DNA of 64,000 nt, taken from assembly GCA_964016885.1 (NCBI GenBank), contig OZ024741.1:365366001-365430000 (forward strand), in the 5' to 3' direction. Below, in pieces: positions 1,741 to 62,208 of the stretch (position 1 is its first letter; each line of letters opens with the position of its first letter). This DNA is from Eledone cirrhosa (lineage: Eukaryota). Under the pieces are notes generated by a model. The model saw nothing but the letters and a program-made list of their open reading frames with translations, had not been told where the DNA came from and made no database searches. Position numbers and translations under genes: made by a program.

Positions 1741-2398
1741 ACCGCCAGAGATTCGATTTTACTGATTTCCAATTATATTATTCTCCTAGATTTAATAATT
1801 AACCAATTAATTTAATTAGACAATTCTGTTGATTGGTTAATTATTTGTGTTTGTTTTATAACATCTAGTTGAGAGCTTATCATGATGATTAGCGGAAATT
1901 AAAATATTTCCTTTCGCTAGCATTTTGAATGACCCATCTAAAACCGGGGGTTATTTCCCTTGCCGGAATTAACACGTGATAACTATAGATGCGATTAGCA
2001 GCCATATGGAGCAGCAACATATAATTTATCACTCCGGTCCTAGGCAGAACGAAATACCTGTTGATAAACTGAATCCTCTGTTCGATCACCAATACCATGA
2101 GCTTGCCATTCACGTAAGTCTGGTATTTGATTTCGGATTCAAAGAAACACATTAAACTATTGTTTGTTTGATTTGTCCAGGTGTACTTTTCTCAACCTGA
2201 TTAGTTCTATCGTTACTTTGGTATATATTGTGTGTTAGTTTCCCCTACCACGATGTTCGATTTGTCAAGTTATTTAAACGTATGTTATTACTCTGAGGTC
2301 CTATCTTATCGAGTGCTTTGCTAACTCATCATTTCATATAAGTAGGCCGAATTTACTTGCAAACCGCCAGAGATTCGATTTTACTGATTTCCAATTAT
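1741..2398 (+). mobile_element. Non-coding element with ~36-bp terminal direct repeat (unit ~622 nt) in (TA)n
   Basis: ACCGCCAGAGATTCGATTTTACTGATTTCCAATTATAT at 1741 and 2363; TA flanks. Confidence 0.6.
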
Positions 2399-3678
2399 AT
2401 ATATATATATATATATATATATATATATATATGTATGTATATGTATGTGTATATATAATTATATATATCTGTATGTATATGTATGTGTGTATATAATTGT
2501 ATTTTACATGCTTCTGTCGTATTTGTGTATATATATATATATATATATATATATGTGTGTGTGTGTGTGTGTTTATATTTGTGTGTGCGTATTTTTATTT
2601 AGGTGGTGACGTAACTTTTTGTAGATATGTGTATTTTTATATAATTGTTTATGTGTGTATATATATAATAGCCTCAGAAACGGCTTGATCTGTGCCGCCG
2701 CGGTCATACTTTTTCCTATATGTATATATATATATATATGTATATGTATGTATATGTATGTATATATGTGTGTATTTGTATGGTTGTGTGTGTGTATATA
2801 TATATATGTATATGTATATATGTATGTGTATGTATATGCATAATTACATACAGTGATTTAATGGTTATGATCATTTGCTTCAGGAACTTGTTGAGTGCTC
2901 TAAATCAGCTATAAACATTTATACCCTTTTCTAATTATTTATTTATTTATTATTTGTCGTATTCCCAACTATTTGTTTACCCCATTCACCTATTTATTTT
3001 TATATATATAATATTTATGTATTTTCTTATATATATGTGTGTGTGTGTGTGTGTATATATATATATATATATAATATATATATATATATATATATATATA
3101 TATATATATATATATATATATATATATATATATATGTATATATATATATGTATATATATATTTAAGAGTTAAACAAGGTTCAATGAATACATCTAAGAAT
3201 AAGTTTTACACACATACATGTGTGTGTATGTATTTATATATATGTGTGTGTATGTACGTGTGTATATATGTATGATTATGTGTATGTATATATATATAGA
3301 TAGATGTATATATATATATATATATATATATATATATATATATATATATATATATATATATATATACATGAGTGTGTGTGTGTGTGTTTGTGTATTTGTG
3401 TGTAGGTGTATGTATGAATATCTTGATATATATATGTGTATGTATGTATATGTATGTGTATTTGTACGTATATGTATATGTGTGTGTATGTATGTATATA
3501 TATATATGTGTATATGTATGTATATATATGTGTATGTATATATGTGTGTGTATGTAATTGTGTGTGTGTGTGTGCATGTGTGTTTATTTTTCCTTTCCTT
3601 CTTCCTTTTCCAGCCTTACTTTCATATAGATTATATTTTTGCTTTTAAAATCCAATGTCAATAAATACATCAGGATTT

Positions 3679-3737
3679 TTCATTCTGATGATTGAAAGCA
3701 AAATTTGTTTGCTTTCAAGAAACCATTGGTAAATGAA
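3679..3737 (+). ncRNA. Type I hammerhead ribozyme (same family as 1372-1430)
   Basis: ttcatt CTGATGA ttgaaagcaaaatttgtttgctttcaa GAAAC cattg GTA aatgaa. Confidence 0.85.
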
Positions 3738-3895
3738 ATAATTGCCCCATGTTGTTTATTACATAACTATTAAGCTCTGTAACCTACATAGAGCACTCTT
3801 TTTTCCTAGACCTTTCCGACAGAATTACTTCATTCACACACACACACACACACACACATATATATATATATATATATATATATATTATATTATAT

Positions 3896-4250
3896 TATAT
3901 TAACATTAAGCGAGATAAAACAGAATTTATCGGAGTATAAACAAGATTGACAAAAAAATATTCTATATAAACTTGCTGATATATAGATCTCCCTACCATG
4001 GGAAGAATTCTTATGTATAATTTCTTGGACAATTTCTCTTAGATTTTGAAAAATTAAAAACCCGTGAAGTGTATGGCGGATTCTTCAATTATTGGTGTAT
4101 CCCTTCAGAATTCTTCCCCTTATGAAACTATGGTAGATATCTCTCTATATATTATTGTCTATCTTGTTTATACTCCCATCTTGTTTTTTACTTGCTTAAT
4201 TTTAATATATAATATTGCTTCTCGGATAAATTCTTCTCATTGAGATGTTT
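3896..4250. mobile_element. Old fold-back element with diverged inverted termini
   Basis: GGAGTATAAACAAGATTGACAA (~3932) vs TTGTCTATCTTGTTTATACTCC (~4154); TTAAGCGAG vs CTTGCTTAA. Confidence 0.5.
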
Positions 4251-4374
4251 AATTATTTGTGACTATTTCACTTTTAATTATATATATCCATTTACTATCT
4301 TTACATACATACATATACACATACATACATACAGACATGCATACACACACACACATACATACACACATAATCAT

Positions 4375-4642
4375 TAATATTGATTTCTGATTTAGTCACG
4401 AAGGCATTCATTTTTTAGGAGAAGGGCAAAGTCAATTATATCGACTGAGGTACTTTACATATACTTTTGATTTATTAATCTCGGAAGGATGAAAGGCAAA
4501 GTTGACCTCGGCTGAATTTGAAATCAGGACCCTGCTTAAGTCAACTTTTCTTTTAATCCTTACGGATTCGATAAAACGAAGTACCAGTACGCACTTGTGT
4601 CGATTTAATCGACTTCCCTTCTCCAAAATTGTTGGGTTTATG
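4375..4642. mobile_element. Two degenerate SINE fragments in opposite orientation
   Basis: GGATGAAAGGCAAAGTTGACCTCGGC (minus-sense core) followed by TCCTTACGGATTCGATAAAACGAAGTACCAG (plus-sense core). Confidence 0.6.
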
Positions 4643-5113
4643 CCTAAATCAGGGATCATTATCTGATTCTTTTACATGTTTCAGTCCTAGAGACTTGGCC
4701 ATACATGAAGGGATTTAATCTATGATATCGACCTCCAGTACATATGTTTTCAAATCTAGTACTTATTTTATCGATTTCGTTTTGTCAAAGCAATGATTTA
4801 AGATAGAAAAATAAACATCAAACATAAAAACACACATCTATGTTTCTACCTACTTCAAAGAAAGATATCTATCACTTACTCTCTCTCTCTCTCTCTCTCT
4901 CTCTCTCTCTCATATATATATATGTGTGTGTGTGTGTAAAAGGTAAACAGAAATAACAACATATATTTATATATAAATCAGCATATAGAGAAAAGTACAG
5001 AAAGAGATATAATCAAAACCCACCAGAGTGACGAACCTATTGCCTACGGAAGGAATGGTGAATATAAATCAATAACAAGATTATATGAAAGTATACTAAC
5101 CATTCGATTATGA

Positions 5114-60002: not shown

Positions 60003-60158
60003 TAAATCCGTAGAACAAATATTTATTATAAGAACAGATTAAAGTTTAAGCAAAGAATCGCTGCTTTCACCCTTAACGGTTGAAACGTTTTTCGAAACAT
60101 TTATTTCTGCGTCCAAGCAGCGATTCTTTACTTAAACTTTAATCTGTTCTTATAATAA
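60003..60158 (-). mobile_element. Short fold-back element in (TA)n
   Basis: AAGAACAGATTAAAGTTTAAGCAAAGAATCGCTGC vs GCAGCGATTCTTTACTTAAACTTTAATCTGTTCTT; relatives at ~24558 and ~31900. Confidence 0.75.
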
Positions 60159-60224
60159 TAATAATATATATATATGTATGTATATATACATATATATATA
60201 TATTATTATTATTATTAATATTAA

Positions 60225-60442
60225 CAATATTAATAAATGGAAAATATCTTTATAATGCCATATTTATTTTATTATACATATTTCAAGGACACAAAATGTT
60301 AGTGTACTTTCATCAGATAAAATATTATATTTTATCTGACTATGTCCTTGAAATACATATAATAAAATCTGTAGAGTGCTTCACATCTGTTATAAAATTA
60401 ACTTTGCTGAATGATAATCAACAAACCATATAACTCATTGTT
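60225..60442 (+). mobile_element. Short fold-back copy of the 6365 family; HHR at 60266-60323(-)
   Basis: TCATCAGATAAAATATTATATTTTATCTGA centre; tail with TGTAGAGTGCT. Confidence 0.7.
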
Positions 60443-61521
60443 TATATGTATATGTAGTCGGCAATTAAATATGTTATGATACAACACTGATTCTTTGTTC
60501 CTTCATTCTTATACTATATATATATATGTATATTTTTTTAATACATTTATTTATTAATTTATGAAAAATGTATAGAATATAGTATAAGGAATGTTAATCT
60601 ATCCCCTAGTCAAGAAAACATTGATAGCACCGCCTCGTGGTAAGGAAATTGAAAACTAAGTTTAACTATACCATTAAGCTCAGTCACTGAAAAACAGCAT
60701 TTTCATTCCCTTATCGCACTCGTTAAAACTTATCATATATTGCAGAAAACTGTTTCAACAGTTTCAGTTAACACAAAATAAATTATATCATGTATTTACT
60801 ACATCCAGTGGTAACAGTTTGTTCATCCAGAAAGAATATTATTGAGACAGTACAACTACTCTTCGATTAAGAACCTACTATATATACAAGGCAGAGGAAA
60901 ATAAACAGTCCCGCAACTTTGTACTACTCTGCGATAGAAAATCCGTAACCACACCGCGTGCATAACAGGTATAGACAAATGAAAGGCAACAACCATCTCG
61001 AGCTACATTTGTTTACTAAAATGAAAATATTGTAACTTACTTTGTCAACTAAAACATCGGTGTAAAATGGAGACCTTCCTCTATGGGAAGTAAACTTGGT
61101 TTCTTTACATCTACGGATATATTAATTCTGAAAAGAAAAAAAAACTACCTGGCAACAGGATAGTATGTAAATATCAAACAAGACATTTAGTAAATGTAAA
61201 GTTGTCAATGAGTTTATAGTATCTAGATTTCTAATTGGAATATAATATTGTATTTGTGCAGCTCTTGACGGGTGTGCAAGGATGAAACATTTTCAAATGA
61301 TTTTCCTATATATTTCGAAATTAATTTTAAATATTTCGTCGTCTTTTCTTTCCTCGACTTATCGCTCTATCTCCAGACTGGACCTTATATTCGATATTTT
61401 ATTTAACCTAATGTTATCATTATATATATATATATATATATATATATATATATATATATATATATATATATATATATATATATATATATATATATATATA
61501 TATATATATATAAATATATAT

Positions 61522-61655
61522 ATGAGGGTGTTAAAGTTTGCTTGAAGCATTGTGAAATGTGTAAAATACGTAGTTAAGAAAGCCACAACAATGCAGAGGG
61601 AAATCTCGAGATTTCCCTCTGCATTGTTGTGGCTTTCTTAACTACGTATTTTAAA
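61522..61655 (-). mobile_element. Short perfect palindrome, family of 6830-7370
   Basis: Centre CTCGAG at 61605-61610. Confidence 0.85.
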
Positions 61656-61815
61656 TATATATATATATATATATATATATTAGAAAGTGAGGTTTTTTAC
61701 AAAATGAAAAATAACCGAGGTGTCCTACACGAGTGAAAGTATAAAGAAAAAAGATGAAATCGAAAATACAACTGGAGTCTTATTTTAAAATAATATATAT
61801 ATATTTATTTGGTTC

Positions 61816-61851
61816 ATTTACCGGTTTCGCAGTTCTTCTGCTTTTCAAAAG
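61816..61851 (-). ncRNA. Hammerhead with U3-A8 variant core
   Basis: ctt TTGAAAA gcagaagaactgc GAAAC cg GTA aat. Confidence 0.55.
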
Positions 61852-62208
61852 TAGAGTTGAGATGGGGGGTCTGTGGTTTTTCTCACATCTCTATATATAT
61901 AGTGTTTCCGTAGGAAGGGTAAAGGAAAGGAGAGTGCTCTATTTAAGCTACAGAGCTATTTAGTTATATATAACTATATGTATATATACATATATATATA
62001 TATATATATATATATATATGTATGTGTGTGTGTGTGTGTGTGTGTGTGTGTGTGTGTGTGTGTGTGTGTGTGTGTGTGTGTGTGTGTGTGTGTGTGTGTG
62101 TATCCAGGGAATATAACGTGATGTTACTGTAGGTTCACCCAAGTGAACACTCGATGTTTAGGTTGACGTCAGTAGCGAGCTGTACAGCTAAACAGAGAGT
62201 AATATAAT

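Follow-up and report, generated by a model that had tools for sequence, protein, structure and literature searches.

The reverse transcriptases (RTs) of Penelope-like elements (PLEs) are the closest relatives of telomerase. How PLEs choose their RNA, and what causes their one-sided tail and inverted ends, is still open. There is only one tail hairpin in long interspersed elements (LINEs); it is located upstream of the RNA 3' end and becomes copied into the insertion. Two unrelated systems offer analogies only, namely epsilon of hepatitis B virus, a bulged hairpin bound by RT, and the subterminal hairpins of IS200/IS605, where IS605 cutting occurs at a fixed distance from the hairpin foot.

In the portions of the literature covered here, the stem-loop in the 3' tail of stringent LINEs and short interspersed elements (SINEs) is bound by the element's own protein (ZfL2, PMC4176376; UnaL2, PMC1636434), and that of UnaL2 has an essential internal loop. 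As far as the covered text goes, PLEs of the Hydra clade have a C-terminal GIY-YIG endonuclease, RWK/RWR, DKT and CxCx5C motifs, a hammerhead ribozyme near the 3' end and (TA)n targets, and the PLE tail was ascribed to endonuclease cleavage (Craig et al., 2021, PMC8557442). For the PLE PAc, the covered part of Frangieh et al. (2024, PMC11167929) reports two internal RT starts, with no defined signal, which bracket the tail (a 111-118 nucleotide (nt) stem-loop) downstream of the hammerhead. RNA to +172 was needed, both strands were extended and a dimer was modelled; a binding element, placed in the first 172 nt of the open reading frame (ORF), was no more than a hypothesis.

Here, we analysed a 64,000-nt stretch of Eledone cirrhosa DNA (GenBank assembly GCA_964016885.1, contig OZ024741.1, positions 365,366,001 to 365,430,000; hereafter the window), in which a first-pass annotation had described an 11-nt motif, NRTHGAGBVCT, located 30-80 nt from the 3' (TA)n junction of otherwise dissimilar elements. 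We found that the motif is one half of a covarying hairpin and not a linear 11-mer, that it usually occurs twice (hairpins H1 and H2) between hammerhead and start codon, and that inserted copies stop a few bases short of H1 or H2. The hairpins probably act as binding sites in the RNA and thereby fix two internal points of RT initiation, one for each strand of a cut (TA)n target, a reading to which we assign a probability of about 0.7.

The motif and its paired hairpin

All 16 quoted 11-mers are present in the window, each at its coordinate and on its strand. The consensus fits 11 of them and fails at 6141, 19118, 16270, 18928 and 38376. Further strict matches lie at 2889, 13171 (minus strand), 37885 (minus strand) and 49876, and the 15 strict matches compare with 3.5 on average, and never more than 8, in 60 block-shuffled controls. 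A (TA)≥4 run was found 25-90 nt downstream of 9 of these 15, versus about 11% of background positions; such in-window enrichment figures are partly circular, because the motif was derived from those same sites. The claimed distance to the junction was confirmed, the next microsatellite run being 29-78 nt away at 15 of the 16 quoted sites, while site 60370 scores 134 nt because the TA end there is imperfect. By our own grouping from self-BLAST, the 16 sites represent only about seven families (2307; 3787, 57707 and 61933; 6141 and 19118; 6731, 33411, 54069 and 60370; 18928 and 39219; 16270; 33128, 59975 and 38376). The flanks of families with the motif do not align, in keeping with the annotated dissimilarity of the host elements. 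Whole-length homology of all tails was therefore ruled out, with only 3787, 57707 and 61933 forming a related group.

Because the pattern had been read off 16 sites of about seven families, a test outside the window was sought. An alignment of 43 of 49 homologues was used as the protein query, which gave 101 loci in 72 DNA families, comprising 78 from metagenomes (from the best 80 of 482 stretches) and 23 from genome bins. We infer that these outside loci are animal DNA in marine samples. The 23 bin loci (L079-L101) lie in prokaryotic bins, several of them symbiont or sponge-type, and are probably misbinned animal host DNA; no Hydra relatives were found in viral contigs.

RTHGAGBVCT occurred within 200 nt 5' of the ORF start at 63 of 74 loci (44 of 52 DNA families), with copies at about -30 and -95 relative to the ORF start, and within 250 nt 3' of the hammerhead at 37 of 58 loci (26 of 37 families). 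In contrast, 136 kb of coding sequence held three matches, and none was found in the 10 kb between stop codon and hammerhead. Thus, positional enrichment over background, which the first-pass annotation had put forward for checking, was clear in the 5' untranslated region (5'UTR). The order at tandem junctions is hammerhead, about 55 nt, TAT, H1, spacer, TAT and H2; the H2 motif is followed about 30 nt later by the ORF start, and H1 and H2 are 53-82 nt apart (31 families). Chance occurrence was ruled out by this position test together with the shuffles.

The motif forms the 3' strand of a bulged hairpin that reads RCTC-Y, a variable stem-loop, R, a TH bulge, GAGY and usually RCT. The parts are a 4-base-pair lower stem, the 2-nt TH bulge on the 3' side, a variable upper stem with its loop, and an unpaired RCT-N-T. 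At the outside loci GCTC-Y precedes each copy, 4-22 nt before R. Pairing was counted in 75 hairpins, that is, 99 sites less 10 near a contig start, 8 without a GCNC anchor, 4 with two and 2 duplicates. The Y:R pair was Watson-Crick in 73 of the 75 (27 T-A and 46 C-G; 39.6 expected), and the next pairs inward in 46 of 72 (19.5 expected), 31 of 46 (12.0) and 19 of 34 (10.0). Four of five slid-register controls were null and one was marginal (p 0.04). On a quick RT tree of the outside loci, the Y:R pair of H1 changed from T-A to C-G or back on six or more occasions, of which three are forced by strong branches, and both sides always changed together (41/41). In a hand-picked alignment (A2), five window families have A-T as the basal pair where the others have G-C, and a GCAC/GTGC swap was seen in L079 and L083. 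The sense strand is favoured because G-T pairs (18; 23 expected) are tolerated more than A-C pairs (5; 12 expected, p 0.006). Extension of the stem by the RCT bases was tried and rejected, the base before GCTC pairing with R in 23 of 75 hairpins (24.3 expected). The unpaired ACT-N-T is highly conserved, and a TAT lies within 10 nt before the hairpin foot in 60 of 75 hairpins, compared with 14 and 17 in control windows.

A model built from 71 outside hairpins ranked five of the quoted window sites at the top, three of them significantly. Searches with the Rfam 15 covariance models (the window, best 150 of 258 matches; 8 of the 101 loci) gave sub-threshold matches only, from fold-backs and microsatellites. 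A linear 11-mer was ruled out by the covarying halves and by ends that track the hairpin foot.

The same evidence bears on the suggestion of the first-pass annotation that the motif is a core promoter element. A TATA box from the TA run with an initiator-like CACT, kept for transcription of the next unit, would suit a 5'UTR location behind TA-rich sequence and the strong conservation of ACT-N-T, and TATATATA plus TCACT was proposed as the promoter in the pseudo-long terminal repeat (pLTR) of Adineta Penelope, according to the covered text of PMC3846280. However, compensatory pairing across a variable gap of 4-22 nt is not what linear motifs at near-fixed spacing would give, and the ends follow the foot and not CACT, even in a family with TAA in place of ACT after both hairpins (at 25475; see below). 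This part of the annotation is therefore not supported, and we regard a promoter as the least probable of the explanations considered, with hardly any weight.

Insertion ends at the hairpin foot

Ends were mapped by aligning hammerhead flanks to the 5'UTR of their own family; 43 read-throughs and 6 contig ends were excluded, leaving 28 informative ends. Of these, 25 lay within -7 to +2 nt of the first G of a hairpin (19 of 20 families). After dereplication (20 ends, 9 at H1 and 11 at H2), the standard deviation was 1.8 nt from the foot versus 4.8 nt from the 11-mer, and the end-to-motif distance correlated with hairpin span at -0.93. TA-type sites alone would place 34% of ends in the range (p 2e-7). 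Because tailed ends stop just before H2, the annotated 30-80 nt corresponds to the spacer from H1 to just before H2. The annotated tie between motif and 3' junction thus stands as far as a conserved cis signal near the junction is concerned, but the visible copy does not set the junction; the uncopied second copy just beyond it does.

These ends also bear on the idea that the element's own protein uses the hairpins mainly as a translational operator or for packaging, while adjoining TA sites alone set the ends. H2 precedes the ORF start by about 30 nt in most families, which would agree with this, as would the excess of TAT close to the foot. Two thirds of the region's TA-type sites lie elsewhere, yet these are avoided by the ends (p 2e-7), and we consider such a main function very unlikely; an operator or packaging role could coexist with RT starts fixed by the hairpins.

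In the window, a sister-copy search run with TA runs masked placed the short sister ends about 1-8 nt before H1. Nine of nine fold-backs, picked by eye, had one short (pre-H1) and one tailed end. A prediction set beforehand for the element at 25475-25834 was also borne out, in that other copies break off 5-7 nt upstream of H2 and continue as (TA)n. Four sequencing runs (X1-X3 from one sample, X7 from another study) were aligned to this region. Depth fell about 18- to 31-fold from bins 25559-70 to 25571-82 (X1-X3, contig sets) and from 73 to 8 on one strand at the same step in X7, and loose ends after 25569 and 25571 continued as (AT)n. In addition, reads join the window hammerhead end at 30443 to 25475. 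In this family both hairpins are followed by TAA instead of ACT, yet the end rule holds, which gives the hairpin more weight than the final letters of the 11-mer. The parts of this element in the window are:

25478 to 25499, plus strand: H1, in the 5'UTR of a near-complete Hydra PLE; basal pair broken, with C at 25499 in other copies, which restores G-C
25577 to 25593, plus strand: H2, followed after 54 nt by the ATG (25647); other family copies end 5-7 nt upstream, at the depth drop and loose ends
25647 to 28216, plus strand: broken Hydra-clade RT and C-terminal GIY-YIG ORF, with RWR, DKT and CxCx5C
30356 to 30443, plus strand: short 3' end of the 25475 family with its putative hammerhead, whose core spans 30356-30387; the end stops just before the expected H1 start

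Mappable 5' boundaries were few and scattered (L013, L014, L045, L064 and L079), most others being contig starts or set by the 300-nt alignment limit. In L013 and L014 the upstream pLTRs start 9-11 nt before the hammerhead core and not at its cut site. At L097:3621-3990 and in L087, the ends of different Hydra families are stacked in one TA run, each hammerhead module lying at its predecessor's short end.

The hairpin might instead direct RNA cleavage or 3'-end formation a few bases upstream, followed by ordinary end-primed reverse transcription. The same genomic ends would be predicted, and the few copies that begin at the hairpin foot look like a downstream cleavage product. The scatter of the 5' boundaries speaks against this; in addition, initiation by PAc was internal on uncut RNA in the covered text of PMC11167929, and no ribozyme match was found in Rfam. 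We judge cleavage improbable.

A further possibility, which we consider unlikely though the least so among the alternatives, is that the hairpin acts in DNA, where the endonuclease would recognise a single-stranded or extruded form and cut the TA just before it, and the ends would represent a cut DNA intermediate or self-targeted resident copies. In the covered text of PMC11167929, the Penelope endonuclease of D. virilis is reported to need the tail for recognition (Pyatkov 2004) and PAc cuts its own junction. Furthermore, (TA)n starts some copies at or near the hairpin foot (window 25475, an X3 contig, L006 and L044), and GAGYRCTY is near-palindromic. However, dispersed targets are plain (TA)n without the motif, the variable 4-22 nt gap fits a double-stranded site poorly and the wobble bias indicates the sense strand and not first-strand complementary DNA (cDNA). 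Internal RT starts at the tail borders were, moreover, directly seen for PAc (PMC11167929, covered text).

Hydra-clade hosts and other features of the window

The first-pass annotation had placed the motif downstream of the hammerhead in two protein-coding Naiad-like PLEs. The hammerheads are present, but the Naiad label is wrong, as domain order and motifs place the coding elements of the window in the Hydra clade. Naiad elements would have GIY-YIG N-terminal to the RT, whereas it is C-terminal in all three window ORFs (25647-28216, 50804-52576 and 55352-56380); they would also have DKA and no canonical hammerhead, whereas DKT occurs in 25635-26546 and hammerhead cores at 30356, 53953 and 57595. 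RWR and DKT were both read from 25635-26546, the sole ORF with an intact N-terminus, and this region is missing from the two truncated ORFs; the consensus of the homologue alignment (A1) has RWKA and DKT. The CxCx5C linker lies at 27763-27789, in 52019-52576 and in 55316-56380, and CxxC (3 of 3 ORFs) and CxH (2 of 3) lie around the E and N residues. Putative hammerheads near the 3' end and (TA)n targets, two further Hydra features, are also found in the window. By eye, the 55352 protein resembles Hydra-1_Obim.

Hammerhead cores lie 103-122 nt upstream of five quoted sites, and several fold-backs retain the 3' half of a hammerhead. Most non-coding carriers of the motif accordingly look like truncated PLE ends, and the annotated mobilisation of non-autonomous elements is left with one candidate (5787-6191). 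The carriers of the A-T variant (2307, 6141/19118, 16270 and 18928/39219) have no linked ORF within the window and were placed only tentatively, by motif, hammerhead half and end rule.

The supplement of PMC8557442 was searched as text (584,000 characters, in which line breaks may mask matches) for six 9-mer spellings. Of nine matches, five were terminal and came from the Hydra consensus file, which is small, and the other four were internal and scattered through a much larger body of Naiad, Chlamys and other sequence; extension of the motif to Naiad consensus sequences, as the first-pass annotation had in mind, was thus not borne out in this material. The exact motif is found in two of the six published Hydra consensi in that material and variants in a third. 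One coral and one sea-cucumber element carry it 3' of the hammerhead, and another sea-cucumber consensus carries it twice at its 5' start.

A Neptune/Nematis-like PLE family in the window (17308-17590, 23381-24450 and 46766-49120; putative hammerheads at 17503 (minus strand), 24151, 47077 (minus strand) and 48840) has ends of both the short and the tailed type, and the Hydra hairpin motif is absent from its tail, which is about 45 nt long. Since this family has hammerhead and tail but no motif, the signal is not common to all PLEs, and the family is a place to seek another clade's signal.

The remaining hairpin-bearing and coding features are:

2290 to 2317, plus strand: hairpin, A-T basal variant; no hammerhead seen upstream
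3685 to 3834, plus strand: putative hammerhead (3685-3722), H1 (3774-3797) and tail; outside-only model E 3.3e-06
1339 to 1440, minus strand: sister of 3685-3834; its short end falls 3 nt short of H1
57595 to 57762, plus strand: putative hammerhead (57595-57643), H1 (57694-57717) and tail, 1.2 kb after a Hydra ORF; outside-only model E 2e-05
55352 to 56380, plus strand: that 5'-truncated Hydra ORF (RT end and GIY-YIG, CxCx5C)
61933 to 61956, minus strand: hairpin in a tail-only insertion of about 90 nt between TA runs; outside-only model E 6e-04
5787 to 6191, plus strand: fold-back; short end at 5787 (-5), hairpin 6130-6151, tail; GC-rich core without hammerhead; candidate non-autonomous element
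19012 to 19168, plus strand: fold-back; short end at 19012 (-5), hairpin 19107-19128, tail
6361 to 6800, plus strand: fold-back; putative hammerheads 6467 (minus) and 6610 (plus), short left end, hairpin 6716-6741, tail
33349 to 33607, minus strand: copy of the 6361-6800 family; hairpin 33411-33436, one 5'-arm pair broken
53953 to 54140, plus strand: putative hammerhead at 53953-53993, then a hairpin whose basal pair is broken (54057-54079) and a tail; a Hydra ORF lies 1.4 kb upstream
50804 to 52576, plus strand: that 5'-truncated, broken Hydra ORF; inverted C-terminal piece at 49973-50505 (minus)
60216 to 60455, plus strand: fold-back with a short left end; the hairpin has lost its 5' arm by deletion and keeps just the 3' half (60370-60380)
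18794 to 18983, plus strand: fold-back; short left end, hairpin 18912-18938, tail
39219 to 39245, minus strand: hairpin of the 18912-18938 family
41996 to 42148, plus strand, and 42187 to 42411, minus strand: two more fold-backs of the 18912-18938 family, absent from the first-pass list; one short and one tailed end each, hairpins decayed
59929 to 60158, minus strand: fold-back; hairpin 59975-60016 with a TA run in the loop
31900 to 33170, plus strand: copy of the 59929-60158 family; 5' arm 31958, 3' half 33128-33138, nested insertion of about 1.1 kb in the loop
38376 to 38386, plus strand: 3' half of a hairpin whose 5' arm was not found, located behind a nested element's end
16243 to 16280, plus strand: motif at 16270; 5'-arm choice uncertain, and the relative at 49619-49770 (minus) suggests a deletion here

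The inverted GC-rich core 5810-6100 shares only its last 22 nt or so and the tail with 19012-19168 and is a candidate non-autonomous passenger. The strict match at 2889 (2870-2903) may be another decayed hairpin (outside-trained model E 0.39). The element nested in the hairpin loop (31985-33120; also 24655 onward, 8650-9066 on the minus strand and 38150-38342) is present in at least two copies of one family, at the same TA-rich spot, and has ends that we take to be Helitron/Helentron-like. More hammerhead-bearing fold-back families, with no clean hairpin match, occur at 268-1273, at 30443-31752 and 46048-46806, and at 54925 (minus), and motif-like words at 846 (minus) and 46651 (plus). A Pfam RVT_1 match lies at 13978-14820. 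The neighbours at 12200-15456 (plus), 20658-23314 (minus), 10170-10740 (minus) and 37244-38030 (minus) are, presumably, a decayed Neptune-like PLE, Ty3/gypsy pol and non-LTR (long terminal repeat) fragments. A repeat of about 190 nt with TAA-type ends, presumably SINE-like, is present in five copies (5107-5298, 11720-11913, 39619-39812, 50521-50693 and 62194-62386), and a perfect 23-nt tandem array of 9.2 copies spans 62728-62939.

A proposed mechanism and its place among known systems

In the mechanism that we favour, the folding molecule would be sense RNA read through a tandem junction. The element protein, perhaps a dimer by analogy with that predicted for the Poseidon element PAc, would hold H1 and H2 while the endonuclease cuts both strands of the (TA)n target. 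Each free DNA end would pair with the UAU(A) directly 5' of a hairpin and prime cDNA running away from it. The start before H2 would copy H1 and the spacer, which would constitute the PLE tail with the annotated motif 30-80 nt from the junction, and with the start before H1 the end would have no tail. Fold-backs would arise when the two cDNAs of a single cut are joined head to head. The PAc results (two internal starts, RNA about 55 nt beyond them needed, both strands extended, dimer model) fit this mechanism. Of the first-pass proposal of a cis signal for RT or endonuclease recognition, a conserved, junction-tied PLE signal remains, for which RT recognition is the best reading; it belongs to a hairpin and to the Hydra clade.

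Several observations weigh against the hairpin and the mechanism built on it. The mechanism rests on genomic footprints and on analogy to another PLE clade. Strict 5'UTR matches were missing in 8 of 52 families; of the 89 motif sites with enough upstream sequence, 12 were removed before the pairing counts, 8 for want of a GCNC arm and 4 because they had two. Single hairpins fold weakly (2 of 11 better than z -2), 39214-39250 did not adopt the proposed fold, and the outside-trained model gave only three window sites at E <0.001 and missed 2307, 6141, 19118 and 16270 at E 10. Three ends lay outside the range (L033, -27; L014, -12; L071, -8), TA microhomology blurs end positions, the ends in the predicted test lie at the far edge of the range (-7 and -5) and the nine fold-backs belong to only four families. 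The A-T variant families are linked to Hydra ORFs through proximity alone (54069). In the published material covered, the sea-louse element Hydra-1_Crog has motif variants only, and the Hydra-1_Obim and Hydra-1_Amil consensi have no clear motif.

The twin hairpin is clade-wide, real and predicts both kinds of insertion end, and it is apparently undescribed; no description was found in the literature or Rfam, subscription papers and Repbase reports lying outside the search. The pair probably shows the enzyme the point at which copying of the RNA begins, which would explain the long-puzzling one-sided tail. More tentatively, and with slightly less than even confidence, twin bulged RNA hairpins may be the missing cis signal of Penelope-like retrotransposition in general. 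A dimeric, telomerase-related RT would grip both on one RNA, each serving as a ruler for priming cDNA from one strand of a (TA)n double-strand cut, and the primer would land on a short UAUA patch. If true, this would account at once for the tail, its one-sidedness, the head-to-head fold-backs and the (TA)n preference. Twin signals specific to each clade would then be expected in other PLEs, and insertion would be open to any RNA with such a pair. A structure of 25-40 nt in dozens of families, with a rule that ends fall about 3-4 nt before the foot, makes point-mutation experiments possible. The hairpin can also mark truncated and non-coding Hydra copies for annotation, many of which now seem unclassified fold-backs, and the pair is a candidate minimal tag for steering a PLE protein to a chosen RNA.

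The elements described here resemble the Hydra-clade PLEs in the covered text of PMC8557442 in their (TA)n targets, pLTR, inverted 5'-truncated copy, one-sided tail and 3' hammerhead; the tail is about 55-100 nt here versus 30-40 nt there, and that text describes no hairpin or 5'UTR motif in Hydra PLEs ('hairpin', 0 matches). No solved structure matched the Hydra profile. As in PAc, two internal starts would flank the tail downstream of the hammerhead and RNA 3' of the start would be needed, here as judged from genomic ends. PAc differs in belonging to Poseidon, another clade, and in having its sites inside the ORF in an AC-rich stem-loop, and the covered text of PMC11167929 reports no twin, covarying or clade-wide motif. 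Like the LINE 3' tail stem-loop, as described in the portions covered, the Hydra structure is a small hairpin with a conserved stem and a family-specific loop, for which protein binding is proposed here. It does not belong to the LINE type, because it is present in two copies that lie 3' of the inferred start, and the decisive, end-setting copy is left uncopied.

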